From assembly GCA_029858545.1 (NCBI GenBank), contig JAOUFA010000001.1:1-39439 (forward strand): a DNA stretch of 39,439 bases, in the 5' to 3' direction. The position numbers were made by a program, and so were the translations under genes. Below the pieces are notes generated by a model, which searched no databases, had not been told where the DNA came from, and saw only the letters and a list, made by a program, of their open reading frames with translations. The DNA comes from Betaproteobacteria bacterium (lineage in GTDB: Bacteria > Pseudomonadota > Gammaproteobacteria > Burkholderiales > SG8-39). Positions 3,808 through 37,717 of the stretch are shown in pieces (position 1 is the first letter of the stretch; each line of letters starts with the position of its first letter).

Positions 3808-4215
3808 CTATTCCACCTTGGCGCCCGAGACGGCGATCACCTTGGCCATCTTGTCGAAATTCGAGCGCAGCAGCTGATCGAACGCCTCGGGCGACAGCGC
3901 CAGGGGCTCGAGGCCTTGCCTGGCCAGCCGTTCGACGATCGACGGGTTCTTCACCAGGGCATTCAATTCCGCGACGTTCCTGGCCGGCACCGTGGAACTG
4001 GCTATCAGCATGTAGCCGCTGGTGCCGACGACCGCGACGCCGGCGAAGTCCCGGATCGGATCGTAGGGCAGCTTGGCGTAGAGCGAACCGTTGATAGTGT
4101 GGCTCGCCGCCGTAAAGAGCAGCGGCTGCCCGTCCGGCGCCGCTTTCGCCACCACCGACGTGCCGATGGTTCCCCCGGCGCCGGCGCGGTTCCGATCATT
4201 GCAGCTTGCAGCCAC
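3808..4215 (-). pseudogene. Bug/TctC-family tripartite tricarboxylate transporter substrate-binding protein remnant
   Basis: Retains NRAGAGGTIGTSVVAKAAPDGQPLL...LPYDPIRDFAGVAVV, then jumps straight to the C-terminal KNPSIVERLARQGLEP...FDKMAKVIAVSGAKVE. The N-terminal ~60 aa and roughly 130 internal aa of a typical ~320-aa Bug protein are missing. Confidence 0.75.
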
Positions 4216-4284
4216 TTGGGTCGGGTCATGCAGGATCCTCGTTCAGGGTGCGCGTTTTCGCTGAACCGCCCGGCATCGAAACGC

Positions 4285-4785
4285 TCAATACTTGACGAGA
4301 CTTGGCAGGTAAGTGGCGATCTCCGGGAACACCATGACCACGATGGTCAGCAGGATGATCGCGTACAGAAAGGGAAAGATCCCCCGGAAGATGGTATTCA
4401 GGGATCTCCGGAGCGATGCCCTTGATCACGAAGACGTTGACGCCGACCGGGGGCGTGATCACTCCCATTTCGCCGGTCAGGACGATGATGACCCCGAACC
4501 AGATCGGGTCGAAGCCGAGCTTCTGGACGATGGGATAGAAGATGGGGATGGTCACGACGATGAGGGCCATGGAATCCATGAAGAATCCGCCCAGGAAGTA
4601 GATCAGGATGATGATCGCCATGACCGCCATCCTGTGGATATCGAGACCGCCCACCCAGTCGGCGAGCTTGAACGGAATGGCCGATACCGCCAGGAAATGG
4701 CGCGAATACCACCGCGCCGGCGATGATGAACATGACCATGCAGCTGGTGCGCAGCCCGTCCTTCCCGGTTTCCACGAGCTCCTTC
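4285..4785 (-). pseudogene. TRAP large permease (DctM) C-terminal remnant with two frameshifts
   Basis: DctM-like text is split over three minus frames: LKELVETGKDGLRTSCMVMFIIAGAVVF / ARHFLAVSAIPFKLADWVGGLDIHRMAVMAIIILIYFLGGFFMD...ITPPVGVNVFVIKGIAPEIP / IFRGIFPFLYAIILLTIVVMVFPEIATYLPSLVKY*. Shifts lie near 4700 and 4388. The 5' two-thirds of the gene are cut off at repeat copy A. Confidence 0.75.
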
Positions 4786-4949
4786 AACTTACCACTAGAC
4801 TCTGCCGCAATCGCTCTCCTCGGGCGCGCGTCGCGGAGCGAGATGGACATAATGCGCATTGCAGACCGCTCAGGGCGCGTTCCGGCGCGGGATTGTCGTG
4901 CGCAGGCAAGCTGTTCAGACTTTCGAGGCGCATTGATTTCCCTATCCGT
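4786..4949 (+). repeat. 164-bp structured interspersed element, full copy A
   Basis: AACTTACCACTAGACTCTGC...GATTTCCCTATCCGT. It differs from copy B at 8 positions, all within element nt 21-51, and is ~85% identical to copy C with no indels. Confidence 0.95.
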
Positions 4950-5082
4950 CGGCGGATGGCCTGCCAGGGCGGCGACAACGGCGTCGGCCGCCACCGTCGC
5001 GGCGAGCGGACGTGACCGGACTGCAGATCGGGCTCACGCCTGGTCCTCGCGAGCATGCGAATGTGGGCCTGCCCCTCTTCGC

Positions 5083-5470: not shown

Positions 5471-5581
5471 ATACCCACCGGGCGTCCGGGCCAAACAGCC
5501 CCAGTATTCCGATCATCGTCGCCTTGGCGTCAGGCCGTGTGACGCAACTGCAACCGTTCATCGAACGGGGGGGATAACAAC

Positions 5582-8500: not shown

Positions 8501-11500
8501 GCCATGGGGTTCGCACCCACCCTCGCCGCCGGCACGGCCATTTATCTGGCTGCGTCCGATCCGCCCGCGCTGCCCGTGGCGGGCTCCATCCTGATTCTGT
8601 GGCTGGTGTCCCCCGCGATCGCCTGGTGGATCAGCCTGCCCCTCACCCGCCGCGCGGCTCGGTTGACGACCGAGCAGACCCGTTTTCTCGGCAGGATCGC
8701 GCGCAAGACCTGGGCCTTCTTCGACACCTACGTCGGTCCGGAAGATCATTGGCTGCCCCCGGACAATTGCCAGGAATACCACGACGTTCTCACGGTGGCG
8801 CATCGCACATCGCCCACAAACATGGGGCTGGCCCTGCTGGCGAATCTGACTGCCCACGACTTCGGTTATATCCCGGCCGGCGTGCTGGTCGAGCGCACGT
8901 CCCATACCCTGAAGACCATGGCGGAACTGGAACGGCATCGCGGCCATTTCTTCAACTGGTACGACACGCAATCGCTGCGACCGCTGCACCCCGTCTACAT
9001 CTCAACCGTGGACAGCGGCAACCTGGCGGGCCATCTCCTGACCCTGCGTCCGGGCCTGATCGAACTCATTGACCGCCCGATCCTGGAGACCCGCTGGTTG
9101 GACGGCCTGGGCGATACCGTGGGGATCCTGGAGGAGGCAGCGGGCAAGGCCGCACCGGCAACGCTGATCCAATTCCGGCAGGACCTCGAAACGGCATGCG
9201 CATCCCTGCCGACCACGCTCCCGGCGGCACAGATGCTGCTCGACCGGCTGGCGCGATCCGCCGAGGCGATCGGCGACGAACTGGGGAATGAGCCCGAAAG
9301 CCAGGCGGGCTGGTGGGCACAGGCGTTGGTCCGGCAATGCAATGCACACCGCGACGAGCTGACGTTTCTTGCGCCCTGGGCCAATCTGGCGCAAGTGCCC
9401 GAGGGCCTCGGCGATCTTCCCGACGTCGATGCGATCCCGACGCTGCGCGCCCTGGCGGAACTCGAAGTCGCCACGTCGAGCCGCCTCGCGAACCTGTCGG
9501 AGGCGGACGCGACGCCCGCGCGGGCGACGTGGCTGACCGAACTGCGCCGCCGCGTCGCGCAGGGCAGCGAGCACGCCCGGGCCCGCATCGCGGCCATCCA
9601 GAGTCTTGCGCTGCAGGTCGGCGAATTTGCGGACATGGAATATGGCTTCCTGTACGACAAAGCATCACGCCTGCTGAGCATAGGCTACAACCTGGACGCG
9701 CGGCGGCTGGACGCGAGTTACTACGATCTGCTGGCTTCGGAAGTGCGCTTGTGCGTGTTCGTCGCCATTGCCCAGGGAAAAATTCCCCAGGAGAGCTGGT
9801 TCGCGCTCGGCCGCTTGCTCACGCGCGCCGGCGGCGAACCGATCCTGCTGTCGTGGAGCGGCTCGATGTTCGAGTATCTGATGCCGCAACTTGTTATGCC
9901 GAGCTACGAGCACACCCTGCTCGACCAGACCGCCCGGGCGGCGGTGGCGCGGCAGATCGAGTACGGGCAGCAGCACGGCCTGCCATGGGGCATGTCGGAA
10001 TCCGGTTACGACACGGTGGACGTGCATCTCAATTACCAATATCGCGCCTTCGGCGTGCCCGGCCTGGGGCTGAAACGTGGGCTCGCCGAAGAGATGGTCG
10101 TCGCGCCCTACGCCTCGGCGCTGGCGTTGATGGTGGCGCCGGAGGCGGCCTGCCTGAACCTGCAACGGCTCGCCGCCGCTGGCGCGGAAGGGCAGTTCGG
10201 TTTTCATGAGGCCATCGACTACACCCCGGCACGACAACGACGCGGCGAATCCCATGCCCTGGTGCGCTCCTACATGGCCCATCACCAGGGCATGAGCCTG
10301 CTCGCCCTGGCCTGTCTGCTGCTGGGTCGTCCGATGCAGAAGCGCTTTGCCTCCGATCCGCTGTTCCAGGCCACCCTGCTGTTGCTGCAGGAGCGGATCC
10401 CCAAGGCCTCGGCGTTCTATGCCCACGCCGCCGAACTCACCGGCATCCAGGCAGGCGCGGGCAGCCCGCAGATGCCGATCCGCTTGCTCGACAGCCCCGA
10501 CACGCCGGTCCCGGAAGTGCAGTTGCTCTCGAACGGCCGCTATCACGTCATGGTGACCAACGCGGGCGGCGGCTACAGCCGCTGGAAGGACTTGGCTCTG
10601 ACGCGCTGGCGCGAGGACGGCACCCGTGATCATTGGGGCACGTTCTGCTACCTGCGCGACGTGGAAAGTGGCGCGTTCTGGTCCACCGCGCACCAGCCCA
10701 CCTTGCGCCGGGGGGCAAGCTACGAAGCGATCTTTTCGGAAGGGCGCGCGGAATTCCGCCGCCGCGATCGGGGTGACGATTTCGATTTCGACACCCACAC
10801 CGATATCGTCGTATCCCCGGAAGACGACATCGAACTGCGCCGGGTGCGCGTCACCAACCGTTCCACCGCGCGTCGGACGATCGAAGTCACCAGCTACGCG
10901 GAGGTGGTGCTGGCGGACCCCGCCGCCGACGCGCTGCATCCGGCGTTCAGCAATCTGTTCGTGCAGACCGAGATCGTTGCGGCGCGCCAAGCCATTCTCT
11001 GCACCCGCCGCCCACGCTCGCGCGACGAACAGACGCCCTGGATGTTTCATTTGATGGCCGTGCATGACGGGGACGTCGACGGGTTTTCCTATGAAACCGA
11101 CCGAGCACGCTTCATCGGCCGGGGACGCAGCCTCGCCGCGCCCCAGGCGATGGACACCGCCGCGGCGCTGTCCGGCAGCCAGGGCTCTGTACTGGACCCG
11201 GTAGCGGCTATCCGCTCTCGGATCACTCTCGCACCGGGACAGTCGGCCAACGTGGACCAGGTCTATGGCATCGGCGACAGCCGCGAAGCCGCTTTGAATC
11301 TCGTGGAGAAATATCAGGACCGGCGCCTTGCCGACCGTGTCTTCGAATTGGCCTGGACCCATGCCCAGGTGGTGCTGCGACAGATCAACGCGGGGGAAGT
11401 GGACGCGCAACTCTACGGACGCCTGGCCAATTCGATCCTCCACGCCAATACCTCGTTGCGCGCCGACAGCAGCGTGCTCACGAAAAATCGGCGCGGGCAA

Positions 11501-14386
11501 TCCGGCCTGTGGGGCTATGCCATTTCCGGTGACCTGCCCATCGTTTTACTGCGTATCGGTGACCTGACCAATATCGAGCTGGTGCGCCAGCTCATCCAGG
11601 CCCACGCCTATTGGCGCCTGAAGGGACTGGTGGTGGACATGGTGATCTGGAACGAGGACCGCGCCAGTTACCGGCAGGTGCTGCAGGACCAGATTCTGGG
11701 CCTGGTGGCGGTCGGTCTGGAAACCCAGGTGATGGACCGGCCGGGCGGCATCTTCATCCGCTCGGCAGAGCAGATTTCCGAGGAAGACCGCACGCTGTTC
11801 CAGACCGTCGCGCGCGTCATCCTTAGCGACAGCGCGGGAACACTGGCGGAACAGGTCAATCGCCTTGCCGCGGTGCAGGTGCGCGTGCCGCGACTCGTGG
11901 CGAGCCGGCCCAAGTTTCCCGAACTGCCCGCCGCCTTCGAACTGCCGCACCGCGATCTGATCCTGTCCAACGGGATCGGCGGGTTCACCCCGGACGGGCG
12001 CGAGTACGTCATCACCACCACGCCCGAACAGCCCACCCCGGCGCCGTGGGTGAATGTGCTGGCCAATCCCGACTTCGGCTGCGTCATCTCGGAGAGCGGC
12101 CAGGCCTATACCTGGGGCGAGAACGCCCACGAGTTCCGCCTCACGCCTTGGCACAACGACCCGGTATCCGACGCCGGCGGCGAGGCCTTTTACCTGCGCG
12201 ACGAGGAAAGCGGCCAATTCTGGTCACCCACGCCGCTGCCCAGGCGCGGCGCGACTCCCTACGTCAGCCGGCACGGCTTCGGCTACAGCGTGTTCGAACA
12301 TTGTGAGAACGGCATCCGATCCGAGCTGTGGGTCTATGTGGCCCAGGATGCGCCGATCAAGTTCTCCGTGCTCAAGGTGCGCAACACCTCGGGCCAGCCG
12401 CGCCGGCTTTCCGCCACGGGCTACGTCGAATGGGTGCTGGGCGACCTGCGGCCGAGATCCGTGATGCACGTGACCACCTCGGTTGCCATTGAGGTCGATC
12501 CCTACGTCGGAGCACTCTACGCGCGCAACCCCTACAACACCGAGTTTCCCGACCGGGTCGCGTTCTTCGATGTGGACGACGCGAACCGGAGCGTCACCTG
12601 CGACCGCGCCGAATTCATCGGCCGCAACGGCAGCCTGGAAAATCCGGCGGCGATGGCGCGCACCCACCTGTCCGGCAAGCTGGGCGGCGGTCTGGATCCC
12701 TGCGCCGCGATTCAGGTGGGCTTTGATCTTGCCGACGGGCAGGAACGCGAGATTACATTCAGGCTCGGCCTGGGAGGCATGCCGGGCGGCGGCGAAGTCG
12801 GTCACCTGGTGCATCGCTTCCGCGGCGCCGACGCCGCGCGGCGGGCATTGGAAGGCGTCTGGCAATATTGGAACCACACTCTCGGTGCGGTCCAGGTGAC
12901 GACGCCCGACACGTCACTCAATGTGCTGGCCAACGGCTGGCTGTTGTACCAGACCATGGCGTGCCGCCTGTGGGCTCGCAGCGGCTATTACCAGTCGGGC
13001 GGCGCGTTCGGCTTCCGCGACCAGTTGCAGGACGCGATGGCGCTGGTACACGCCGAGCCGGGGCTGCTGCGCGCCCAACTGCTCCTGTGCGCAGGCCGTC
13101 AGTTCCAGGAAGGCGATGTCCAGCATTGGTGGCATCCGCCCTCCGGCCGCGGTGTGCGCACCCATTGTTCCGACGACTATCTGTGGCTGGCCCTGGCCAC
13201 CTGCCGCTATGTGCAGTGCAGCGGCGACACCGGCGTGCTGGATGAATCCGTCGCGTTCCTGGAAGGCCGTCCCCTCAACCCGGACGACGATTCCTACTAT
13301 GACCTGCCCGGCTACTCCGAGGGCGTAGAGAGCCTCTACCAGCACTGCGTGCGGGCTATCCGGCACGGACTGCAATTCGGCGAACACGGCCTGCCGCTGA
13401 TCGGGTCGGGCGACTGGAACGACGGCATGAACCGGGTGGGTATTCAGGGCAAGGGAGAAAGCGTGTGGCTGGGCTTCTTCCTATACGACGTGTTGCGCCA
13501 GTTCGGCGATCTGGCGCGCCGCCAAAATGACGCCGCCTTCGCCGAATTCTGCGCAGTGGAAGGCAAGCGCCTGCGCGCGAACATCGAGCAGCACGGCTGG
13601 GATGGCGCCTGGTATCGCCGCGCGTGGTTCGACGACGGCACCCCCCTCGGCTCCGCGGGCAACAGCGAATGTCAAATCGATTCGATCTCGCAAAGCTGGG
13701 CGGTGCTCTCCGAGGCGGGCGACAGCGAACGCGCGCATATGGCCATGCAGGCCGTCGACGCCCGGCTGGTGCGCCGCGACCACGCCCTCATCCAGTTGCT
13801 CGATCCCCCCTTCGACAAGTCCAACCTGGACCCGGGCTACATCAAGGGCTATGTGCCGGGTGTACGCGAGAACGGCGGTCAGTACACCCACGGCGCCATC
13901 TGGGCGGCTATGGCCTTCGCCGCCCTAGGCGACAGCCGCCGTGCCTGGGAACTCACCACCATGATCAACCCGGCCAACCATGCAAAATCACCCGAGGCCA
14001 TCGCGGCTTACAAGGTGGAACCCTATGTCATGGCGGCCGACGTCTACGCCGTGACGCCCCACATCGGCCGCGGCGGCTGGACCTGGTACACCGGCTCGGC
14101 TGGCTGGATGTACCGGCTCATCGTCGAATCGCTGCTGGGTTTGCGGCTGGAGGCGGACCGGCTGCACGTTACTCCTTGCCTGCCGACACATTGGACCGAA
14201 GTGACAATCCACTATCGCTACCGGGAAACGGTCTATCACATCGCCGTTTCGCAAATCCGGGCGGGCGGCGATGGGAAAACTGGCGTAATGCGTATCAGCG
14301 TCGATGGTGTCGAATTGCATGACCAGGCGATTCCGCTTTGCGACGACCAACGGGAACACTCGGTCGCAGTGACGGTGCACGTGTAG
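5582..14386 (+). CDS. ndvB: cyclic beta-1,2-glucan synthase-like protein (NdvB/ChvB/Cgs type: GT84 glycosyltransferase, cyclization/glucoamylase-like domain, GH94 phosphorylase)
   Basis: 2934 aa. TM clusters flank a GT domain (ALVVVPTMLTSPQNID...LDTDSQLPRDAA...GYGILQPRV). The middle domain contains RTSPTNMGLALLANLTAHDFGY...FFNWYDT...STVDSGNL and SWSGSMFEYLMP...GMSESGY. There are two GH94 N-domains (LLSNGRYHVMVTNAGGGYS; LSNGIGGFTPDGREYVI) and a GH94 catalytic core (GFRDQLQD...VQHWWHP...GSGDWNDGMN). The first ~40 aa may be an over-extension. Confidence 0.85.
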   Translation: MGPAWKTGNSVLLRHWRRIGTGLSRARTAGSSAAEKSFDEEPPLRAELFSTEQMEQHGARLASVHRLKPGRVPDQLLSRLAANETALVETCDRLTVAIAETHRITPAGEWLLDNFYLVEEQIRTARRHLPKGYSRELPALAEGASAGLPRVYDLALETIAHGDGRVDPDSLGRFITAYQTITPLRLGELWAIPIMLRLALIENLRRVAVRIAGGRMHLDLAVEWASKLTRIARDDPKNMILVIADMARSKPPMTTPFVSELARRLQGHGPALALPLTWIEQQLAASGLSIEQLVRSGNQQQAADQVSISNSIGSLRLLGTMDWREFVETMSVVEQTLRTEPGAAYAAMNFASRDRYRHVIEQVAKASGLSEAAVSSHAIALARAGAARGGQTDRMAHVGYYLIDRGLTELERAAQARLPLAAMLRRWASRNPLLVYLGTITLLTLLLTSGLLAEAQTQASDVLTRGEIHWVLALTVILALLASSQLAVALVNWLATLLTSPHSLPCMDYSAGIPPESRALVVVPTMLTSPQNIDSLVEALEVRFLANRDDNLHFGLLTDFRDAAEETLAGDAPLLDLARQRIDAMNAQYARGGKDIFFLFHRPRRWNPHDKIWMGYERKRGKLADLNALLREGNGEGFSLVVGATAALAGVKYVITLDTDSQLPRDAARQFVGAMAHPLNRPVYDAALGRVSAGYGILQPRVSVSLSGASQSRYARLHGGEPGIDPYTRAVSDVYQDAFQEGSFIGKGIYDLDAFEQSLKGRFPENRILSHDLLEGCYARAGLLSDVQLYEEYPARYLADVNRRYRWIRGDWQLAAWVLPWVPGSDGRLRKNPLSALSRWKLFDNLRRSLVPAALTLLLLLGWTLFSSSLLWTLAVLGILLIPPVLATLPEVLRNPGDMRPDQHLAAAVHAAGQRIVQTGFALATLPHEAFYSLDAILRTLGRLLVTHKRLLEWNPSGDQERLSRRDLATSFRAMGFAPTLAAGTAIYLAASDPPALPVAGSILILWLVSPAIAWWISLPLTRRAARLTTEQTRFLGRIARKTWAFFDTYVGPEDHWLPPDNCQEYHDVLTVAHRTSPTNMGLALLANLTAHDFGYIPAGVLVERTSHTLKTMAELERHRGHFFNWYDTQSLRPLHPVYISTVDSGNLAGHLLTLRPGLIELIDRPILETRWLDGLGDTVGILEEAAGKAAPATLIQFRQDLETACASLPTTLPAAQMLLDRLARSAEAIGDELGNEPESQAGWWAQALVRQCNAHRDELTFLAPWANLAQVPEGLGDLPDVDAIPTLRALAELEVATSSRLANLSEADATPARATWLTELRRRVAQGSEHARARIAAIQSLALQVGEFADMEYGFLYDKASRLLSIGYNLDARRLDASYYDLLASEVRLCVFVAIAQGKIPQESWFALGRLLTRAGGEPILLSWSGSMFEYLMPQLVMPSYEHTLLDQTARAAVARQIEYGQQHGLPWGMSESGYDTVDVHLNYQYRAFGVPGLGLKRGLAEEMVVAPYASALALMVAPEAACLNLQRLAAAGAEGQFGFHEAIDYTPARQRRGESHALVRSYMAHHQGMSLLALACLLLGRPMQKRFASDPLFQATLLLLQERIPKASAFYAHAAELTGIQAGAGSPQMPIRLLDSPDTPVPEVQLLSNGRYHVMVTNAGGGYSRWKDLALTRWREDGTRDHWGTFCYLRDVESGAFWSTAHQPTLRRGASYEAIFSEGRAEFRRRDRGDDFDFDTHTDIVVSPEDDIELRRVRVTNRSTARRTIEVTSYAEVVLADPAADALHPAFSNLFVQTEIVAARQAILCTRRPRSRDEQTPWMFHLMAVHDGDVDGFSYETDRARFIGRGRSLAAPQAMDTAAALSGSQGSVLDPVAAIRSRITLAPGQSANVDQVYGIGDSREAALNLVEKYQDRRLADRVFELAWTHAQVVLRQINAGEVDAQLYGRLANSILHANTSLRADSSVLTKNRRGQSGLWGYAISGDLPIVLLRIGDLTNIELVRQLIQAHAYWRLKGLVVDMVIWNEDRASYRQVLQDQILGLVAVGLETQVMDRPGGIFIRSAEQISEEDRTLFQTVARVILSDSAGTLAEQVNRLAAVQVRVPRLVASRPKFPELPAAFELPHRDLILSNGIGGFTPDGREYVITTTPEQPTPAPWVNVLANPDFGCVISESGQAYTWGENAHEFRLTPWHNDPVSDAGGEAFYLRDEESGQFWSPTPLPRRGATPYVSRHGFGYSVFEHCENGIRSELWVYVAQDAPIKFSVLKVRNTSGQPRRLSATGYVEWVLGDLRPRSVMHVTTSVAIEVDPYVGALYARNPYNTEFPDRVAFFDVDDANRSVTCDRAEFIGRNGSLENPAAMARTHLSGKLGGGLDPCAAIQVGFDLADGQEREITFRLGLGGMPGGGEVGHLVHRFRGADAARRALEGVWQYWNHTLGAVQVTTPDTSLNVLANGWLLYQTMACRLWARSGYYQSGGAFGFRDQLQDAMALVHAEPGLLRAQLLLCAGRQFQEGDVQHWWHPPSGRGVRTHCSDDYLWLALATCRYVQCSGDTGVLDESVAFLEGRPLNPDDDSYYDLPGYSEGVESLYQHCVRAIRHGLQFGEHGLPLIGSGDWNDGMNRVGIQGKGESVWLGFFLYDVLRQFGDLARRQNDAAFAEFCAVEGKRLRANIEQHGWDGAWYRRAWFDDGTPLGSAGNSECQIDSISQSWAVLSEAGDSERAHMAMQAVDARLVRRDHALIQLLDPPFDKSNLDPGYIKGYVPGVRENGGQYTHGAIWAAMAFAALGDSRRAWELTTMINPANHAKSPEAIAAYKVEPYVMAADVYAVTPHIGRGGWTWYTGSAGWMYRLIVESLLGLRLEADRLHVTPCLPTHWTEVTIHYRYRETVYHIAVSQIRAGGDGKTGVMRISVDGVELHDQAIPLCDDQREHSVAVTVHV

Positions 14387-14396
14387 AACCCGTGTC

Positions 14397-14560
14397 AACT
14401 TACCACTAGACTCTGCTCCAATCGCCTTCTTCGGGCGGGTGTCGCGAAGCGAGATGGACATAATGCGCATTGCAGACCGCTCAGGGCGCGTTCCGGCGCG
14501 GGATTGTCGTGCGCAGGCAAGCTGTTCAGACTTTCGAGGCGCATTGATTTCCCTATCCGT
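14397..14560 (+). repeat. 164-bp structured interspersed element, full copy B
   Basis: Starts 10 nt after the ndvB-like stop codon (TAG 14384-14386). It is identical to copy A over element nt 52-164. Confidence 0.95.
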
Positions 14561-14984
14561 GTCCGATACGGTTCAGACCTTGCGTTACCTGCCGCCGACG
14601 ACCATACGCGTCGTTGCCGATCAACAGGGCCGTGACCATGCAAGTCTGTTGCCACATGAATTGATCGGCCAGGGACTGGAAGCTGTGCCGCCCGAGACAG
14701 CGGCGCACATTGTGCGCAGCGAGGAAGCTACCCTCCGCACATTGGTTGCGGTTGCCGAAGAGCTGGCCGCGACGCAGGCCAGTACGATACTGAAAGGGGC
14801 ACACACCCAGACACGCGACAACCTGTCGACGGAAATTAACCGGCTCAAGGCCTTGCGCCGGGTAAACCCGAACATCCGGGAAGACGAAATCGAACACCTC
14901 GAATCACATTGGCAAATACTGAGCCGGGTACTCGATACCGCCAAACCCCGGCCGGATGCAATCCGGGTGATTGTGGACACCTGA
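14561..14984 (+). pseudogene. rapA: RNA polymerase-associated SNF2 ATPase RapA/HepA, C-terminal ~140 aa fragment
   Basis: ...LRYLPPTTIRVVADQQGRD...STEINRLKALRRVNPNIREDEIEHLESHWQILSRVLDTAKPRPDAIRVIVDT* matches the extreme C-terminus of RapA (E. coli ...RLEALRAVNPNIRDDEL...RLDALRLIV). Homology begins immediately at the right edge of repeat B, and there is no 5' part of the gene. Confidence 0.8.
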
Positions 14985-15025
14985 TCCGTATCGCGTACGC
15001 TCACTGGTGAACGAAAGGCCGGACA

Positions 15026-15049
15026 CCCGGGAATCTCCAGCGTCCCGGG
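15026..15049. terminator. 7-bp GC hairpin between convergent rapA fragment and methyltransferase gene (weak terminator candidate)
   Basis: CCCGGGA-N10-TCCCGGG. There is no clear U-tract on either strand. Confidence 0.2.
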
Positions 15050-15061
15050 CGCCGCATGAGA

Positions 15062-15895
15062 TTAGGCGGGTTTTCGCGCGATCATTTCCACCGGAGCCAG
15101 CAATCCGGCGCTGACGTTTTCGACCAGGTTCTTTATCTTGGCAGGTGTGGTTGCCTGCATCAGCGTGTGCAAACCCAGCGGCGGCGGGCCACCATTTGCC
15201 TCTGTTTTCGCTTTCATCTGCTTGAAAAATTCAAGCCCGAATTCCCTCCGGTTCGTCTCCGCCGTAATCACAAAGCCTGCTGCGCCAAGAGCTTGCCTGT
15301 ACTGGTCCGGTGTCGCCAGGCTGCTGGTCATTCTATCCGTCGCCCAGGTTGCGGGATAATTCGCCTCACCGTCGCCGATCTGCATAATATCGTAAGCCCC
15401 GAACACCGCTCCCGGTCGAAGCACACGGTATACCTCGGCAAACAATTTCTTTTTATCCGCAATATTCATTCCAACATGCAACATAATCGCTCCGTCAAAT
15501 GACTCATCCTCGAACGGCATTGACAGTGCGCTCCCCTGTTCCAGTGTGACCTGCCTTTCCAGTCCGACCCAGGAACAAAGCGCATTACCGGTATCGATAT
15601 ATTCCTGTGTCAAATCGATACCGGTTACCCGTGCGTTGGTCTTTTTTGCCGTATACCGCGCTGCACCACCAAGCCCGCATCCGACATCCAGCACGTGATC
15701 CTTGTCTGTAAATTTCATTTGCTGCAGCAGGTGATCGGTTGCCAGGCGTCCGCCAATATGAAATTCGTCGACCGGTCCGAGGTCCTCCACGGTTATCGAG
15801 TCCACGGTTTTTCCCAGCTTGGGAATCGCCACCTGGATCGCGCCCAACAAATCCCCGTGGGTGTAGTGTTTCGATATCGCGTTTTCAATAGACAT
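15062..15895 (-). CDS. class I SAM-dependent methyltransferase
   Basis: 277 aa. SAM-binding motif I VLDVGCGLGGAARYTA, followed by VTGIDLT and LRPGAVFGAYD. GAGGAG Shine-Dalgarno upstream. Confidence 0.85.
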   Translation of the reverse strand: MSIENAISKHYTHGDLLGAIQVAIPKLGKTVDSITVEDLGPVDEFHIGGRLATDHLLQQMKFTDKDHVLDVGCGLGGAARYTAKKTNARVTGIDLTQEYIDTGNALCSWVGLERQVTLEQGSALSMPFEDESFDGAIMLHVGMNIADKKKLFAEVYRVLRPGAVFGAYDIMQIGDGEANYPATWATDRMTSSLATPDQYRQALGAAGFVITAETNRREFGLEFFKQMKAKTEANGGPPPLGLHTLMQATTPAKIKNLVENVSAGLLAPVEMIARKPA

Positions 15896-15992
15896 AATCA
15901 GATCTCCTCTCGTTATAGGCGGTTTGTGAAATTCGCCGATGCGTCACCGGCTGCAATAGAATTTCTTTGATCCGACAATTTACTCATCAGCA

Positions 15993-16823
15993 TCAGCTCG
16001 ACCTGATCATTTCCGGCATCGAATCCGGGTATCGCATTACCGCTTCATCAAGCAGGAACAGCTTGTCGGGAGGAACCTGTGGCCAGGCATGATGGGAGGT
16101 GTGTCGGAAGAATCCGTCGCTGACCCGCTTGCCATTTGTCATCCTCAACAAGATCTTTACAAACCCCGGTATCTTTTTGTCCAGCCCAAAGCGGTAGGTC
16201 TGCGTGTGTGAAAACCAGGAGAAACTCAGCCACGCAATCGCGCTCATTAATCGCACGGCCAGCACTACCCCCAGGTACTTCTCCCAGCCGAAACTCAGGA
16301 CGAACAGGACCAGTAGCGGCAGGTAGATGGCCAGGCGGATCCAGCGACTGGTCGTGATATTCCTGTTGCGGATATCGATCACGAGCTGCGCTTCCTCGAA
16401 GAACGTGCAATAAAACAGCGAACGCCAGAATCCACCGGACTCGTAGATGGAATGCGGATCCTTTAGCATATCTCCGCCCGGTACCTTGCCCGGCATGTGT
16501 TCCAGGTGATGCGTAAAGTGTTTCTTCCGGATGGAATCGATGGGCTCGGCCCACGGAACCGCAACAACTGCAAAATGCTCAGCCATGAGCTCAATCGCCC
16601 GCGGCCACCGTCGCAGCTGGTCGGTATGCATGCGATCGTGGGCGCCCATAAAGAACCGCATGTAGAGGAGATGAAATAGCAGGTAGAAAACGGGCCAGCT
16701 CAGGTAGTCCAGCGCGTAGGCAAATATGACTACGTACGTCATCGCGGTCATAAGGGTCACTTCTACGTCCAGAGCTCTCTTGGACTCTGCCGGTATATTG
16801 AATTCCTCGTCACCGATTTTCAT
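15993..16823 (-). CDS. membrane fatty-acid desaturase-family protein (three His boxes)
   Basis: 276 aa, hydrophobic. His boxes HDRMH, HFTHHLEH and HTSHHAWPQ, spaced as in the di-iron membrane desaturase/hydroxylase family. Confidence 0.75.
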   Translation of the reverse strand: MKIGDEEFNIPAESKRALDVEVTLMTAMTYVVIFAYALDYLSWPVFYLLFHLLYMRFFMGAHDRMHTDQLRRWPRAIELMAEHFAVVAVPWAEPIDSIRKKHFTHHLEHMPGKVPGGDMLKDPHSIYESGGFWRSLFYCTFFEEAQLVIDIRNRNITTSRWIRLAIYLPLLVLFVLSFGWEKYLGVVLAVRLMSAIAWLSFSWFSHTQTYRFGLDKKIPGFVKILLRMTNGKRVSDGFFRHTSHHAWPQVPPDKLFLLDEAVMRYPDSMPEMIRSS

Positions 16824-16886
16824 ATCAACTTTCCCTGCGATTCGCCATCTCTAGTCGTATTAATCCCTATGCATCGAGTGCATCCG

Positions 16887-17081
16887 TCAGACCGGACTGA
16901 TCAGGCTCTGGCCGCCAATGCCCCAGTTGTTCTCGCTTACCTCCTCGATTAGCACCCAGGTGATGCCCCGCATGGCCTCGCCCTCAATGGACACCATGGC
17001 ATCGGTCACCTTCTGGATCATTTCCCGCTTCTGTTCATCGGTGAAAACATTTTTGATCACGCTGATGGTCACCAGTGGCAT
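16887..17081 (-). CDS. 4-oxalocrotonate tautomerase-family protein
   Basis: 64 aa beginning MPLVTISV, which gives the catalytic Pro1 after Met removal. Tautomerase-like length and beta-alpha-beta pattern ([21 protein letters not shown]). Confidence 0.85.
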
Positions 17082-17242
17082 GCACTCCCTCCTGTTGCGA
17101 TTTACGGGCTTTTCCAGTTATTTCATGCATCCTAAATCCATCAATCTCCGGATACCTGAAGTCGGCCAGGAGGTTTTATGGAGATTTTGTGGAGATAGTT
17201 TGCTAATTTGATATCTGGGGTATTTCCAGGGGGAGACTTTCG

Positions 17243-18778
17243 GTGCGGCTGATTTTCGGGGAATACGTGCTCGATACAGAGCTATTCGAACTGCGTCACA
17301 ACGGTGAGCGGTCCCCGCTTGAGCCGCAGGTATTCAACCTGCTGCTGTACCTGGCCCGCAACAGGGATCGTATCGTCAGCCGCCAGGAGCTGCTCGACAA
17401 ACTATGGGCTGGAAAGATAGTTACCGAATCGACCTTGAGCAGCCGCATCAAGGCCGCGCGGCAGGCAGTCGGTGACAGCGGGCACAACCAGAACTGCATC
17501 GCCACGTTCAATCGCCGTGGATACCGTTTTGTAGCCGAAATCGTCGAAGAACGGGAGCAGACAGGTAAGGAGTCAATTGACGTCTTTCCGAAGATGCCTG
17601 CTCCGCATCGGGATCAGCCCTCGCTGGCCGTTCTGCCCTTTGCACATAACCCGGGTGACGAAAAGATAGCGTGGATTGCCGAGATGCTGGGCGAAGACAT
17701 CAGTATCCAGCTGGCCCGAATCCCGGGGTTCCTGGTGATTTCGCGTAATTCCACCGCGTACTATCGCGGCCGCGAATTCACCATAGACCAGATCGGTCGC
17801 GAACTGGAAACCGATTACGTTATCGAGGGTTCGGTCTGGAATACCGGCGACAAGCTGCGTGTATCAGTACAGTTGCTGGAAACCTCCAGCGGCCGGTTTC
17901 TGTGGGCCAACCGCACGGAGTTACCGGCCAACAAACTCGGGGATTACCAGGATGACGTGGTGCGCGAAATCGTTGGTCAAATCGAGCCGGAACTGAACCG
18001 CGCCGAACTGCTTAGTTTGCGTCAACACAGACCGGTTGATCTCGGCGCGTGGTCACTCTATCGCCAGGGCCATGCGCTGCTCGGGATCAAAGGCTGGAGC
18101 GAAGAGACCTTTGCCGAAGCAGCGGACCTGTTACGCCAGGCAATTGCCCGCGATTCAGAACTGGCGTTTGCACATGCTTACCTGGCGCTGCTACTAGCCA
18201 TCGGGCATTTGATCGGCCTGGTCACGGACGATGCCAGTCGCGAGGAAGCGGTCGTCGCAGCGGAAACCGCTTTGGCACTCGATGGCCAGGACCCGGATAT
18301 TCTTGGCTACGTAGGCTGTGCGTTTGCCGACATGGGCGAGTTCCAGCGCGGCATCGGTATGATGCGACGCGCGGTTGAACTGGACCCGAGCAATGCGCAG
18401 GCGCATGCGGCACTTGGTTCCGCGCTACTGCACATAGGCGAGTTAGAGGGCATCGAAGAAATGCGCTACGGCATTCGCATCAGTCCCCGTGACAACCGTC
18501 TCGCTGCCTGGGGCGCCATGCTGGCACGCGGTCTATTAAGTCTCGGCAAGGTTGACGAGTCGATTGAGGCAGCGGAACACGCGTGCCGCTGTGACGACAA
18601 GATCTTCCTGCCACGCGTGGTACTGGCGGTGGCACAAAACACCGCGGGCAACCTGCAGGCCGCCCGCGCCGCGCTCGACGATGCACGCCGCATCCGGCCG
18701 CAACTGTCGTTGAATGACATTGCACGTTTTGCCAGCCCGGAGGAAATCTCAAGCCTTTCGCAAGCCGGCCTGGTCTAG
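17243..18778 (+). CDS. transcriptional regulator with an OmpR/CadC-type winged-helix DNA-binding domain and C-terminal TPR repeats
   Basis: 511 aa with a GTG start and GGGGGAGA Shine-Dalgarno. The N-terminus FELRHNGERSPLEPQVFNLLLYLARNRDRIVSRQELLDKLWAGKIVTESTLSSRIKAARQAVGD is a trans_reg_C-type domain. The C-terminal half has TPR-like repeats (AHAYLALLLA, DPSNAQAHAALGSALL). Divergent from the tautomerase operon. Confidence 0.8.
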   Translation: MRLIFGEYVLDTELFELRHNGERSPLEPQVFNLLLYLARNRDRIVSRQELLDKLWAGKIVTESTLSSRIKAARQAVGDSGHNQNCIATFNRRGYRFVAEIVEEREQTGKESIDVFPKMPAPHRDQPSLAVLPFAHNPGDEKIAWIAEMLGEDISIQLARIPGFLVISRNSTAYYRGREFTIDQIGRELETDYVIEGSVWNTGDKLRVSVQLLETSSGRFLWANRTELPANKLGDYQDDVVREIVGQIEPELNRAELLSLRQHRPVDLGAWSLYRQGHALLGIKGWSEETFAEAADLLRQAIARDSELAFAHAYLALLLAIGHLIGLVTDDASREEAVVAAETALALDGQDPDILGYVGCAFADMGEFQRGIGMMRRAVELDPSNAQAHAALGSALLHIGELEGIEEMRYGIRISPRDNRLAAWGAMLARGLLSLGKVDESIEAAEHACRCDDKIFLPRVVLAVAQNTAGNLQAARAALDDARRIRPQLSLNDIARFASPEEISSLSQAGLV

Positions 18779-18797
18779 TTTTTTACAGCACTGACAT

Positions 18798-19081
18798 TCA
18801 ATTTCTGTCCTGAAAAATCATCTCAGCGCCCTTCTCCGCAATCATCGTGGTCGGCGCATTGGTGTTACCAGAGATGATGGTCGGCATCACCGATGCATCG
18901 ATCGCCCGCAATTCCTGGATACCGTGCACGCGCAATTTCGCATCGACCACCGCCAGCGCATCAACACCCATTTTTCAGGTGCCCACCGGGTGAAAAATCG
19001 TAGCGCCGAGATCACCTGCGGCAATCAACAACTGTTCATTCGATTGAGCCACGAGCCCGGGTCGGAACTCCTCCGGACGAT
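18798..19081 (-). pseudogene. GMC-family (choline dehydrogenase-like) oxidoreductase, C-terminal ~93 codons with an in-frame TGA
   Basis: YRPEEFRPGLV...[67 protein letters not shown]. The TGA at 18975-18977 replaces the Cys of the conserved GTCKMG motif. The 5' ~450 codons are cut off at the left edge of repeat C. Confidence 0.8.
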
Positions 19082-19245
19082 AACTTACCACTAGACTCTG
19101 CTCCAATCGCCCTCTTCGGACGCGTGTCGCGGAGCGAGATTGACTTAATGTGCAATGTAGACCGTTCAGGGCGCGCTCCAGCACGGGATTGTCGTGCGCA
19201 GGCAAGCAGTTCAAACTTCGGGGTCGGATTGATTGGCCTATCTCT
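19082..19245 (+). repeat. 164-bp structured interspersed element, full copy C (second subfamily)
   Basis: Collinear with A and B without indels. It differs from B at 24 of 164 positions and shares subfamily-specific bases with partial copy D. Confidence 0.95.
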
Positions 19246-19651: not shown

Positions 19652-20902
19652 ATGATCTCTTTCAACCGCAAGGTGGCACTGGGCATAGGCTCGGTGTCGT
19701 TGTTCCTGGCCGCAATGGCGGCCCCGCTGGCCTGGTGGGTGGCGCGCGGGAACGCGGAAGAAGCCATCGTGGCCATGGCGTTGGAAGAATCGGAACGCCT
19801 GTTGCAGCACGAACCTTTCCGGCCACAGGGCCCGCAAGCGCAGGAGCATGCCCAGGCAGCCGTCCAGGCGCTGGTGGGTGGCTTGTTCGACATCGCCGAG
19901 CTCTACGCCGCCGACGGCCGGAAACTGGCCGAAGCAGCCACCCCGATCGGCGACACACTGGAACACGATCGGCCCCAACACCGTATCCCGAGTTACAGCA
20001 AGCCCTATTACGAAAGTCAGCGGCTCGCGCCCGATCGCTGGACGCTGCGCGTGTTTGTCCCGTTGAAGCTGGGCGAACAGGGAGTCATCCACGGATATTT
20101 CGAGGGTGTGCGCCTGATGCCGCGCTGGCAACGCGAACAGATTCGCAACGATGCGCTCAAAGAGGCGCTGATGGTATCGCTGGCCGCGCTGATCTGCGGC
20201 GCAGTGCTCTATCCGGTGGTGATTCGCCTCTTCGCTGAGAACCAGCGCCAGGCGCGTGAGCTACTGGAATCACACATCACCATGATGGAGGCCATGGGGC
20301 GCGCCATTGCACGGCGCGATTCCGACACGGGTACCCACAACTACCGCGTGGCTTGGATGGCCGCGTCGCTGGGCGAAGCCGTAGGCCTGCACGGCTCGCG
20401 CATGAAGGCGCTGATCGCCGGCAGCTTTCTGCACGACGTGGGCAAGATCGGCATCCCGGACGACATTCTGCTCAAGCCGGGCCAACTGACCGAACACGAG
20501 ATAGCTGTGATGCGCACCCATGTGACCATGGGCGAAGAGATCGTCACCGGCGCGGGCTGGCTAGAAGGCGGACGCGAGGTGGTGGCGGGCCATCATGAGA
20601 AGTGGGATGGCAGCGGCTACCCGCGTGGCCTGGCTGGCGAAAACATCCCGCTGGTGGCGCGGATCTTTGCCATCGTCGATGTGTTTGACGCCCTGTGCGC
20701 GCGCCGCCCGTACAAACCGTCGCGGGATCTGCCCGCCGTGCTGGAAGTGATGACCGAAGGCGCCGGCCGGCACTTCGACCCGCACCTGCTCAAGGCGTTC
20801 GTGGGTCTGGCGCCACGATTCCATCAGGCGATCATCAAGGCCGACGAGACACAGGCACGCGCACTGCTTGACCAGATGGTGCGCAAGCATTTCGACCTGT
20901 GA
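19652..20902 (+). CDS. HD-GYP domain protein (putative c-di-GMP phosphodiesterase) with an N-terminal 2-TM sensor region
   Basis: 416 aa. TM1 at ~8-30 and TM2 at ~175-197 (LMVSLAALICGAVLYPVVIRLF). HD-GYP core motifs HDVGKIGIPDDILLKPGQL and GHHEKWDGSGYPRGL. Confidence 0.9.
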   Translation: MISFNRKVALGIGSVSLFLAAMAAPLAWWVARGNAEEAIVAMALEESERLLQHEPFRPQGPQAQEHAQAAVQALVGGLFDIAELYAADGRKLAEAATPIGDTLEHDRPQHRIPSYSKPYYESQRLAPDRWTLRVFVPLKLGEQGVIHGYFEGVRLMPRWQREQIRNDALKEALMVSLAALICGAVLYPVVIRLFAENQRQARELLESHITMMEAMGRAIARRDSDTGTHNYRVAWMAASLGEAVGLHGSRMKALIAGSFLHDVGKIGIPDDILLKPGQLTEHEIAVMRTHVTMGEEIVTGAGWLEGGREVVAGHHEKWDGSGYPRGLAGENIPLVARIFAIVDVFDALCARRPYKPSRDLPAVLEVMTEGAGRHFDPHLLKAFVGLAPRFHQAIIKADETQARALLDQMVRKHFDL

Positions 20903-20979
20903 GCCGACGGCCAGCCTCTGCGGCCGACCGCCCTCCACAAATCAGTCGCTCGGCGAAATGAGCCGCGCGGCGCAGAGCA

Positions 20980-21488
20980 GAGCTTTTGCACCGCCTCCTG
21001 CGTGGACACCAGCACCTCCAATTCGATCCGAGGTGCTCAAGCTCCTCGTCGCCGAGCATGCCATCGGCGAGCGGCTCGCGGCAGGCCTGCTCGCCTGGCG
21101 CCACAGCGGCTTCTCGGTGCATAACGCCGTACGCGTTCGAGCAGGGGATCTGGAGGGCCGCAAGAAGCTCGCGCACTACACGCTGCGCGCGCCGCTTTCC
21201 CTGGAGAAGATGACCTATGACGCAGGGAAAGGCATGGTCATCTACCGCTCGCACATGCACAAGAGTCTAAAGCGCAATTTCCAAGTGATGTCCGGCGCGC
21301 AATGGCTCGAACTGCTCTGCCGCCATATTCCGGACCGGTTCGAAGATCTGGTGCGCTACGTTGGCTGGTACTCGACAAGGGTTCGGGGCGATCGGGCTGC
21401 GCTGGCGCCGCGCGCTGTGGTCGCGCAAGGCGCCGGCGAACGCGTATCTGGTAGAGTGTCGGGAACGAGCGCCGGCCCGGGAGCCTAG
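20980..21488 (+). mobile_element. IS91-family (HUH Y2, rolling-circle) transposase, C-terminal fragment only
   Basis: ...EVLKLLVAEHAIGERLAAGLLAWRHSGFSVHNAVRVRAGDLEGRKKLAHYTLRAPLSLEKMTYD...YRSHMHKSLKRNFQVMSGAQWLELLCRHIPDRFEDLVRYVGWYSTRVRG matches the conserved C-terminal third of IS91/ISCR-type transposases. There is no N-terminal Zn-finger or HUH region and no recognisable IS ends. Confidence 0.75.
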
Positions 21489-31112: not shown

Positions 31113-31625
31113 TCACGCTGGAGAAGTGTCGAGTGCCATCGGCATTCCGAGGCAGACAGATTTCACCCGGTCCCGCATCTGCGGCGAGTCGGCCGGATGG
31201 CGATAGGCCCGAAACACTTCATTCGAGGAATCGCCGGCGCGAACGGGAGCCATAAACGGATCGACATATTCCCACACGATCTCGCCGGCAGGCGTGATTT
31301 CAAAAAGCCGCCCCCATTGCCCTTCGCAGATGAGTGTATTGCCGCCGGGCAGGCGCTGCGCGCCGCTGATGTGCGGGCTGAAAAATGTATGGGCGAGCCT
31401 GGCACGATTCTCCCATACGATCTTGTGCGTGCGCGGATCGAGTTCGACAACACGGGAGAATGGATTATTCGGCGTGTTGATGCCATTGGCGAACAGCGTG
31501 ATGTTCCCGTTCGGGAGGGGTGCGCAGTCGTGCTGCATTCCGAAGCTGTCGTCGCGGTGCGCCCACTCTAGTTTCCGGGTGCTCTTGTCGATCAGCCCGA
31601 TCGTATTGAGACGGCGAAAGCTGAA
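31113..31625 (-). pseudogene. arylsulfotransferase (ASST)-like beta-propeller protein, C-terminal ~170 aa fragment
   Basis: The open frame reads FSFRRLNTIGLIDKSTRKLEWAHRDDSFGMQHDCAPLPNGNITLFANG...SRVVELDPRTHKIVWE...GEIVWEY..., fitting the HHD..LPNGN..FDNG / ..IVWEY pattern of ASST-family proteins. An upstream stop lies at 31626-31628 and there is no N-terminal half. Confidence 0.5.
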
Positions 31626-31676: not shown

Positions 31677-31772
31677 GCGCAATGTAGACCGTTCAGGGCG
31701 CGTTCCAGCACGGGATAGTCGCGCGCAGGCAAGCTGTTCAAACTTCGGGGTCGGATTGATTTGCCTATAGTC
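31677..31772 (+). repeat. interspersed element, right-end partial copy D (element nt ~69-164)
   Basis: GCGCAATGTAGACCGTTCAGGGCGCGTTCCAGCACGGGATAGTCGCGCGCAGGCAAGCTGTTCAAACTTCGGGGTCGGATTGATTTGCCTATAG is collinear with copy C. The left boundary is fuzzy, and similarity fades upstream of 31677. Confidence 0.85.
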
Positions 31773-36971: not shown

Positions 36972-37130
36972 CCCGGTTCTTGCTGCGCCCCGGCAGGATG
37001 GAATCTACTGACCCCAGCCGGGTGAAGACTGATTCCACCCTCAGGTGCGCGAGGGGAATCCTTCATCCCCCCGGCCCTAGTCGGCACAAACAGGAGATCG
37101 GCAAATCCTTCCGGGCGTGAAGTCTGAAGG

Positions 37131-37180
37131 GCGCAGGCAAGCTGTTCATGCTTCGGTGCTGGAATGATTGGCCTATCGCT
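37131..37180 (+). repeat. interspersed element, right-end partial copy E (element nt ~115-164)
   Basis: GCGCAGGCAAGCTGTTCATGCTTCGGTGCTGGAATGATTGGCCTATCGCT is collinear without indels with nt 115-164 of copies A-D. It ends 1 nt before the cupredoxin gene stop codon on the opposite strand. Confidence 0.75.
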
Positions 37181-37717
37181 TTATCGCACCTCGATCACGC
37201 CGCGCATCCCGCCTTCGTAGTGCCCGGGGACCAGGCAGGCAAAATCGACCGTGCCCGCCTGGGTGAACTGCCAGACGATCCCGCCGCGCCGGCCGGGCGC
37301 GACGCGCGCCATGTTCGGCGCGGCGTGTTTCATGTGGGGCTGCGCACGCATCATCTCGGCGTGCGCCTTCAGGTCCGCGCTCGAACCGATCGCCATGTCG
37401 TGCTCGCTGCCGCCCGCATTGCGCAGGAAGAAGCGCAGGGTCTCGCCGGCCTTGACCTGCACGCGAGCGGGCGTGAAGCGCAGGTCGTCGCTCATCACGA
37501 TCTCGACCGTGCGCGACACTTTCGCCGGATCGCCGGGCCGGCCGGCGGTGCCCATGTCGTGACGCATGCCGGGCATGTCGTGCTGCATGCCGGGCATGTC
37601 GTGCCGCATGCCCGGCATATCGTGCGCGGCGCCGTGCGAAGCACTGTGTTTCTCCTCGGCGGCCAGCGCGCCCGCCGGCGCGACGACGAGCGCGAGGATG
37701 CAAATCGATTTTTTCAT
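37181..37717 (-). CDS. periplasmic cupredoxin-domain copper-resistance protein (CopI-like) with a His/Met-rich repeat
   Basis: 178 aa. Signal peptide MKKSICILALVVAPAGALA. (HDMPGM[RQ]) x3 plus a partial fourth unit HDMG, then a cupredoxin fold with type-1 Cu ligand pattern (EHDM ... FACLVPGHYEGGM). AAGGAA Shine-Dalgarno. Immediately downstream of copB. Confidence 0.8.
   Translation of the reverse strand: MKKSICILALVVAPAGALAAEEKHSASHGAAHDMPGMRHDMPGMQHDMPGMRHDMGTAGRPGDPAKVSRTVEIVMSDDLRFTPARVQVKAGETLRFFLRNAGGSEHDMAIGSSADLKAHAEMMRAQPHMKHAAPNMARVAPGRRGGIVWQFTQAGTVDFACLVPGHYEGGMRGVIEVR

Follow-up and report, generated by a model that had tools for sequence, protein, structure and literature searches.

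A dispersed 166-nt repeat in a betaproteobacterial lineage is probably a transposase-less miniature of an IS91-family insertion sequence

Background

What kind of genetic object is a sequence of ~166 nt that recurs between genes, always on the same strand, along the DNA of a single bacterium? The question is raised by the window analysed here, the whole stretch of 39,439 nt from a Betaproteobacteria bacterium (contig JAOUFA010000001.1), and a preliminary description had answered it with a fold, proposing that the repeat is a structured RNA or single-stranded DNA element built from four nested helices. Based on the copies, their neighbours and their relatives in other metagenomes, we conclude instead, with a probability of roughly 70%, that it is a miniature derived from an IS91-family insertion sequence, non-autonomous and spread within a single uncultured lineage.

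Elements of the IS91 family and ISCR elements are known chiefly for moving resistance and virulence genes while remaining at low copy number. A derivative this short, with no transposase of its own and multiplied to about one copy in every 4-8 kb, would correspond in bacteria to the non-autonomous Helitrons, and if such copies also stand beside truncated, compositionally foreign blocks, rolling-circle elements could reshape chromosomes on a large scale and beyond plasmids. The repeat also matters in practice, as it breaks short-read assemblies of the window's lineage, in which contigs end or switch partners within it, and can pass mistakenly for an RNA gene. As a compact pair of ends (~166 nt), the mini-element could be used to examine the recognition of ori and ter by Y2 transposases.

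Copies and boundaries of the repeat

Repeat searching and MAFFT alignment recovered five copies of the ~166-nt repeat in the window, all on the + strand and at the positions first reported for them. Three are full: copy A (4786..4949, 94% identical to B), copy B (14397..14560, the full mini-element to which element positions refer below) and copy C (19082..19245, 84% identical to B). The other two hold the 3' part only; in copy D homology is clear over the 3' ~95 nt (31677..31772), the preceding 5' part (31607-31676) being diverged, and copy E (37126..37182) is a right-end fragment consisting of the core and the 3' arm. About 15 further copies were found on metagenome contigs of the window's lineage and of two related lineages, which brings the family to ~20 dispersed copies with sharp boundaries on five independent contigs, at a density of about one copy per 4-8 kb. 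Copies of the window's lineage are 61-95% identical to one another and ~65% identical to copies of another lineage. A second region of the window's lineage (L059, 20 kb) carries four full and two partial copies. Orientation is uniform within loci, with co-orientation of all five window copies, of all four full copies in L059 and of all three copies in L066.

The distribution of the family is narrow. A 23-mer of the core gave two chance matches and no real copy in 185,579 species-representative genomes, and in the metagenome collection its real copies were confined to JGI Ga0224495, the 47 other matches being a coding 23-mer of gut Clostridium. A blastn search of the plasmid collection returned no match to the element, and a six-frame translation compared with 5.8 billion proteins gave a single match, which led to L059. 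The organism of the window was also present in ENA ERZ27296335 and SRR7132115, at 99.8% identity. In a search for empty sites, the repeat was absent from two loci with glucan-synthase homologues 83-84% identical to that of the window (L057, L058), and the relatives were not syntenic.

The full copies share a common anatomy, for which all positions given here are those of copy B on the + strand. The 5' edge of the element reads (C)AACTTACC-ACTAGACTCTGCTCC, and the motif AGACTCTGCTCC lies at 14408..14419 on what we read as the ter side. It is followed by a local GC-rich hairpin, CGCCT-TCTTC-GGGCG (element nt 27-41, 14423..14437), which is a candidate subterminal palindrome. The core, GCGCAGGCAAGCTGTTCA (14511..14528), is the same in all five window copies save for one T/A position, and within the window's lineage the 18-mer GCGCAGGCAAGCnGTTCA, which lies between the two ends, is nearly invariant; other lineages have a different GC-rich, palindrome-like sequence at the core position. 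Two GGATTG motifs are nearly invariant as well. The terminal motif on the 3' (ori) side is ATTGATTTCCCTATCCGT in copy B (14543..14560), with the consensus GGATTGATTnnCCTATC, and is common to every copy.

Truncation of the repeat is polar. The 3' part alone is kept in D, E, a solitary module at L014, copy r3 of L059 and copies c1/c2 of L066, so that across copies the 3' end is constant and the 5' extent variable, as expected of a constant ori and a variable ter. There was no pair of inverted repeats of at least 8 nt in and around copy B (14380-14580, seed 6), and no direct repeat in the flanks of the 10 full copies that were aligned at both boundaries. A classical MITE was accordingly rejected, as both terminal inverted repeats and duplication of the target site would be expected of it. 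In 16 of 17 copies CCTAT is followed by C-N-N-T, but these 4 nt track the subfamily (CCGT or CTCT) and may for that reason belong to the element; beyond them we found no flanking consensus, and there was no clear tetranucleotide of the CTTG/GTTC type at the ori end.

Secondary structure

In the preliminary description, helices P1 (nt 26-31/51-56), P2 (59-64/127-132), P3 (68-73/114-119) and P4 (81-84/102-105) were drawn on the strength of paired substitutions between copies, and the bases it quoted were confirmed throughout. At pair 31:51, A and C have C:G where B has T:A; at pair 64:127, A and B have A:T where C has T:A; at pair 84:102, A and B have C:G where C and D have T:A; and at pair 70:117 the C:G of B becomes T.G in C. 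Copies B and C carry CTTCGG at nt 33-38, copies C, D and E carry it at nt 135-140, and the loop ACTTTCGA is present in A and B. The 26 differences between B and C fall 9/6/11 across the three phases and thus show no codon periodicity, as had also been stated. A small protein or other coding module was rejected on this count and because four open frames out of six are what is expected at 65% GC.

A family of structured non-coding RNA genes, either an sRNA or a guide like omega-RNA or bridge-RNA that folds into P1-P4 on the + strand, would draw on these real compensatory pairs, on loops of the C(UUCG)G type and on G.T wobbles that can pair on the + strand only. In the alignments, moreover, the share of cells that were paired and the score for covariation were both higher than in column shuffles: on the 13-copy alignment, 82% of the P1-P4 cells were paired and double changes occurred at 7 pairs, compared with 3.0 +/- 1.2 in shuffles. 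A control structure slid by +2 columns, however, had double changes at 6 pairs, nearly as many as P1-P4, and P1 pair 30:52 and P2 pair 60:131 were unpaired in 8 of 11 copies. The sole robust covariation is that of pair 84:102, which is perfect (C:G in five copies, T:A in five) and probably reflects a single event on the tree. Decisive against P2 and P3 are the two copies at L060, ~65% identical and from another organism, which retain only 1-2 of the 6 pairs of P2 and 2 of the 6 pairs of P3, along with 4 of 6 in P1 and 3 of 4 in P4. The paired substitutions were thus not confirmed to amount to a fold beyond chance, and the nested fold is not conserved in the diverged copies.

Thermodynamic and database comparisons gave the same picture. 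Relative to dinucleotide shuffles, the minimum free energies of the RNA were those of a less stable molecule for copy B (z of +1.90 for the + strand and +1.55 for the - strand) and copy C (z of +1.39), and the two strands of copy B folded as DNA were also less stable than shuffles (z of +0.82 and +1.06). RNAalifold yielded no usable consensus from either 4 or 13 copies, the latter alignment giving -4.6 kcal/mol with a covariation term of +1.13, in which a positive sign is penalising. The whole window had no match in Rfam 15 at the gathering threshold, and copies B and C at E <= 10 gave nothing or noise only (E 2.5-2.6), a negative result that covers those omega-RNA, HEARO and bridge-RNA models that are present in the release. 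Neither a sigma-70-like promoter nor an intrinsic terminator was seen inside copies B or C, and no TnpB, IscB or IS110-type recombinase gene was found in the window. The density of the repeat is far beyond that of sRNA gene families, and some partial copies consist of the 3' third only. With no thermodynamic signal, no consensus fold and P2 and P3 lost in diverged homologues, the ~160-nt guide or regulatory transcript once suggested was not supported. We concluded that the repeat is most likely not a folded regulatory RNA and that nothing points to an RNA product, leaving a structured RNA gene family with only a slim chance of being correct.

Local hairpins are another matter. At nt 27-41 all five pairs form in 6 of 10 copies and four of the five in one more, the form CGCCY-loop-GGGCG being kept in most copies with differing loops. 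This hairpin shares its 5' strand with P1, with which it competes, and overlaps the first of the proposed TTCG loops; in the L060 and L066 copies it is shifted by one register. In the 3' region each variant can form some stem, and there is no common register.

Flanking genes

The copies are intergenic and often lie 0-30 nt from stop codons (B, E, L032, L059a). The 8.8-kb cyclic-glucan synthase gene (NdvB, 2934 aa) sits between A and B, and copy B begins 10 nt past its stop codon. Directly at the 3' end of B there is a C-terminal fragment of a RapA gene (14562..14984, + strand), with RapA_C beginning 1-2 nt after the copy (the Pfam match starts at residue 42 of the ORF, which is nt 14562). This fragment forms the left edge of a low-GC block, and the right edge is formed by a C-terminal fragment of a GMC oxidoreductase gene (18807..19070, - strand), which ends ~12 nt before the 5' end of copy C. 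Fragments of TctC (N-terminal) and DctM (C-terminal) lie to the left of copy A (3808..4717, - strand), a C-terminal fragment of an arylsulfotransferase gene lies to the left of copy D (31113..31538, - strand), and copy E ends at the stop codon of a cupredoxin gene. The block between B and C (14.5-19 kb) has a GC content of 55-57%, compared with 65-69% elsewhere, and is a candidate for a captured segment.

Different short-read assemblies attach different flanks at the repeat, and some of the mosaics may therefore be artefacts. The junction from NdvB through copy B to RapA is spanned by two overlapping ENA contigs.

Another explanation is a site-specific recombination site with an arm-core-arm layout like that of attC or attP, which would bound gene cassettes in a co-oriented array, with crossover in the invariant core by a tyrosine or serine recombinase. 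Partial copies do start or stop at the core, 5' and 3' variants combine in all four ways, copies are co-oriented, GC content differs between inter-copy blocks, and at L059 a single secreted-protein gene stands between a core with 3' arm and a 5' arm with core, with a shared 19-mer. The flanks that would be the target at L059 are gene fragments, however, and not an empty site; the mosaics may be assembly chimeras; and no integrase or recombinase gene was found in the window or the related loci. The repeat also shows no long imperfect hairpin like that of attC and folds more weakly than shuffles, and a recombination site would leave the link to IS91-type transposases and the common end motifs described below unexplained. 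We consider it quite improbable. An integron attC site or cassette array in the strict sense was rejected for the same weak fold and missing integrase, for the absence of an inverted repeat and for ends that, in place of RYYYAAC ... GTTRRRY, offer only AAC at the 5' edge. Xer/dif sites, DGR templates and domain V of group II introns were dismissed by eye, as their defining motifs, symmetry or enzymes were missing.

Association with IS91-type transposases

The window contains an internal fragment of 375 nt from an IS91-family transposase gene (Y2_Tnp, HUH; 21023..21398, + strand). It is not adjacent to any copy, and its flanks have no similarity to the element, but its homologues led to three loci (L060, L061 and L066) that link the repeat to IS91-like elements. 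L060 and L066 come from two samples and from other organisms, with GC contents of 61-62%. In both, an IS91-type tnpA gene, whose product has HIH as its HUH motif, YVGWY as its tyrosine motif and the Pfam domain Y2_Tnp (PF04986), precedes a full copy of the repeat on the same strand, at a distance of ~85-105 nt. Between gene and copy lies a degenerate form of the 3' motif (GGATTGATTGCCCAGC), with the copy immediately after it. The two arrangements are homologous and hence count as one ancestral event, not two.

At L061, the third locus, the stop codon of tnpA is followed 226 nt further on, on the same strand, by the motif GGATTGATTTGGCTATC. The 21-nt terminal motif there, GGATTGATTTGGCTATCTTTT, agrees with the element in 18 of its 21 positions, a significant likeness given that none of 500 shuffles scored as high. 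This motif closes the non-coding stretch downstream of tnpA, and there is no full copy there. Two further loci with tnpA homologues (L062 and L063) hold internal gene fragments only, without ends. None of the homologues of the transposase piece that were searched belongs to an intact autonomous element of this subgroup; the close ones (at least 60% identity) are all 220 aa or less, i.e. right-end fragments.

Among annotated proteins, the nearest relative of the associated transposase is WP_224963446.1 (39.8% amino acid identity over 187 residues), which belongs to an IS91-like element present in 13 copies on the Trichlorobacter lovleyi plasmid pIAE1 (NZ_CP058410.1). The copies of this element that we compared have one right end, ...AAATTCCTATTCC, and three alternative left starts; one copy of 462 nt keeps the right end only, and the right terminus is tandemly reiterated. 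In its variable left ends and its right-end-only copy the Trichlorobacter element thus resembles the mini-element. It differs in being autonomous, with a transposase of 445 aa and a length of 1.7-1.8 kb, whereas the mini-element has no transposase gene, and its internal non-coding sequence could not be aligned with the mini-element. The left boundary of the long Trichlorobacter form begins AAACTCTGCTCC, to be compared with AGACTCTGCTCC at nt 12-23 of the mini-element. The 10-mer ACTCTGCTCC is found at nt 2-12 of the mapped Trichlorobacter left end and at nt 13-23 of the mini-element, and the pattern A[AG]ACTC[TG]?GCTCC, which holds it, occurred only at those two kinds of place in the loci searched. 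Shuffles reached this 10-mer match in 22 of 500 trials, with its position not yet taken into account, and we regard the likeness of the 5' motif to the Trichlorobacter left end as suggestive. The right end also resembles the ...GATTTCCCTATCC of the mini-element, a similarity that is not significant alone.

These results bear on two further explanations. The first is a non-mobile host intergenic repeat comparable to REP/BIME or ERIC sequences, whose role would lie at the level of DNA (protein binding, domain organisation and stabilisation of transcript ends are the roles we considered) and for which the IS91 neighbourhood would be a coincidence or a target preference. Positions between genes and close to stop codons, as well as the near invariance of the 18-nt core and both GGATTG motifs, would suit it. 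A host repeat would hardly be expected to adjoin truncated genes, though, or to be missing from both of the similar glucan-synthase loci; a 3' end that stays constant while the 5' ends vary is the hallmark of polar copying, and at L061 the terminal motif stands downstream of tnpA without a full copy. We consider this explanation highly unlikely.

A non-autonomous element of the IS200/IS605 type, palindrome-associated and moved by a Y1 TnpA to sites 3' of a TTAC-like target, would likewise have neither inverted repeats nor target duplications. At the 5' edge of most copies, just before the element or as its first bases, stands CTTACC, TTGC or TTCC, which approach the IS608 target TTAC; the orientation of the copies is biased, and small hairpins lie near both ends. 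The two end hairpins are dissimilar, however, the genes found beside copies are of the Y2 (IS91) type, and no gene for Y1 TnpA or TnpB was seen in any of the loci analysed. Rfam, which covers any IS605-associated RNA families that it holds, gave no match at the gathering threshold or at E <= 10, and variable 5' ends are not known as a feature of the IS200/IS605 family. The odds of this origin seem to us very small.

Proposed mechanism of spread

The behaviour of the repeat fits that published for the IS91 family point by point, and for this reason we read it as a mini-element of IS91 type that is probably moved in trans. The family transposes by a rolling circle, and its HUH transposase, which has two catalytic tyrosines, acts on single-stranded DNA. 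IS91-family elements have neither inverted repeats nor target duplications and transpose from a start at oriIS to a stop at terIS, through an active intermediate that is a single-stranded circle (PMC13181058). A working mini-IS91 was made from the two ends, 89 bp on the left and 82 bp on the right, the right one having been shown to be sufficient, and termination fails in 1-14% of events, in which neighbouring DNA is carried along (PMC13181058). For IS801, right-end fragments of 229, 360 and 679 nt transpose, and upstream (left) DNA is recruited in vivo (PMC3189936).

By analogy with these elements, the ter-like 5' end of the mini-element would consist of (C)AACTTACC-ACTAGACTCTGCTCC followed by the short GC-rich hairpin, and the ori-like 3' end of the GC-rich core, a variable hairpin-prone stretch and then GGATTGATTnnCCTATC. 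A transposase supplied from elsewhere would nick one strand at the 3' (ori) end, and the nicked strand would be displaced toward the 5' end and released by a cut at the ter-like end, after which it would close into a single-stranded circle and insert at another site. Insertion of this kind would leave no inverted repeats and no target duplication. Early termination would give copies with the 3' part only, such as D and E, and missed termination (one-ended transposition) would carry along the DNA to the left of the copy. We infer this transposition in trans, the cleavage positions and the one-ended capture from the parallel with IS91 and IS801.

One-ended transposition would account both for the truncated foreign genes at the copies and for the low-GC block between B and C, which may have been captured beside the ori end of B. 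Hairpins, where they form, would serve as features by which the single-stranded DNA is recognised. Among the earlier suggestions were hairpins in single-stranded DNA of the HUH type, and the direction of that suggestion agrees with the 3'-terminal motif and gene neighbourhood that the repeat has in common with IS91-family elements and, less securely, with the common 5' motif. More speculatively, the 4 nt that follow CCTAT, which vary with the subfamily of the 3' arm (CCGT or CTCT), might mean that in this IS91 branch the sequence of the element itself determines the choice of target, as it does in IS608.

The mechanism could be extended to the whole 39-kb window, which would then be a capture array in the manner of Helitrons and ISCR elements, built by the mini-element. 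Each one-ended transposition would have landed beside the ori end of the previous copy, leaving co-oriented copies spaced by foreign blocks, for example the glucan synthase gene between A and B and the 55-57% GC block between B and C. We offer this extension tentatively and think it doubtful.

Comparison with known systems

Short length, high copy number, intergenic position, absence of a transposase gene and presumed movement in trans are features that the mini-element has in common with MITEs and with the palindrome-associated elements of the IS200/IS605 type. It differs from classical MITEs, which have terminal inverted repeats and target duplications, in possessing neither, and from the palindrome-associated elements, which accompany Y1 TnpA and TnpB, in that neither gene was seen near it.

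ISCR elements and Helitrons provide a parallel through polar capture of neighbouring DNA and of gene fragments and through co-oriented arrays, capture in the window being an inferred process. ISCR elements retain a transposase gene, however, and the mini-element has none. Helitrons resemble it in that their non-autonomous copies outnumber the autonomous ones, but they are eukaryotic and encode a Rep-helicase.

With IS91, IS801 and IS1294 the mini-element shares the lack of terminal inverted repeats and of target duplications, two unlike ends that may each form a subterminal palindrome, and an ori end that is constant while the other end varies. Members of the IS91 family carry adjacent DNA, as the mini-element would also do under the mechanism proposed here. 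The mini-element is set apart by having no transposase gene, by a copy density far higher than usual and by the want of a clear tetranucleotide of the CTTG/GTTC type at its ori end, and its end sequences are presumably unrelated to those of IS91 and IS801. Its length of ~166 nt is close to that of the mini-IS91 of 89 + 82 bp (PMC13181058).

A natural precedent is found in the IS801 miniatures of Pseudomonas syringae (Bardaji et al. 2011, PMC3189936). Formed by one-ended transposition, they lack a transposase gene, retain the right (ori) end and terminate at an internal site that resembles ter. These miniatures arise afresh from full-length IS801 and form no large family, in contrast to the mini-element, whose 166 nt include a conserved 5' motif of its own and which has diversified into subfamilies, an indication of its repeated propagation. 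The literature that we searched covers the IS801 miniatures, and no amplified, diversified family of IS91 type without a transposase gene was described in it. The repeat is thus best filed with the derivatives of the IS91 family, to which it adds, as the new feature, an amplified and diversified family of mini-elements.

Gene surroundings of the element copies

The interval between copies A and B of the roughly 166-nt repeat is occupied by a gene for a GH94 cyclic beta-1,2-glucan synthase of 2934 aa (window 5582-14386). Homologues of this protein from other MAGs, 83-84% identical to it, had entirely different neighbours, and the glucan synthase gene may therefore have relocated. The gene also contains a 52-nt direct repeat with 79% identity (10649-10700 and 12191-12242), which probably originates from the two GH94 supersandwich domains of the synthase. 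From copy B to copy C, the GC content of the window was 55-57% (14000-19000) versus 65-69% elsewhere. This low-GC block, which exactly fills the B-to-C interval, starts within a RapA gene fragment and ends within a GMC-oxidoreductase fragment, and it looks like imported DNA.

Several copies lie beside stop codons. The glucan synthase stop codon is followed after 10 nt by the start of copy B, the copy at another locus (L032) begins about 15 nt past a CusS stop codon, and the end of copy E meets the stop codon of a cupredoxin gene on the minus strand (junction at 37177-37183, gene at 37181-37717). Four tandem repeats of 51-60 nt were found at 39150-39371 inside a multicopper-oxidase (CopA-like) gene, also on the minus strand, and these are probably Met/His-rich coding repeats.

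In L059, a second region of the same lineage, a secreted protein of 354/368 aa with no Pfam match is encoded on the minus strand (4926-6227, equivalent to 4994-6295 of contig L010), with the element core and 3' arm upstream of the gene and the 5' arm and core downstream. The two bordering pieces have in common the 19-mer GCATTGCGGCGCGCCRGCC, and the unit is neighboured by a truncated alpha/beta hydrolase on one side and a TctC fragment on the other. The flanks of the copy near L059 9215-9388 diverge among three assemblies (L010, L014 and L059); contig breaks or chimeras are caused by the 166-nt repeat, which is longer than the assembler's k-mer.

IS91-type transposases and related elements

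In the window itself, an IS91-family Y2 transposase gene is represented by an internal fragment (20868-21488, with homology at 21023-21398). All close homologues of this fragment in a set of 5.8 billion proteins were at most 220 aa long and are therefore C-terminal fragments rather than full genes. At locus L061, an IS3-family element with an rve integrase core (4093-5633) lies directly upstream of a truncated IS91-type gene, and toxin-antitoxin genes are abundant around both. For the IS91-like element of Trichlorobacter lovleyi pIAE1 (L065), the left ends had three different starting points, and the right terminus, ATTCCTATTCC, was reiterated in tandem two or three times at some copies (41599-41640 and 1002-1024).
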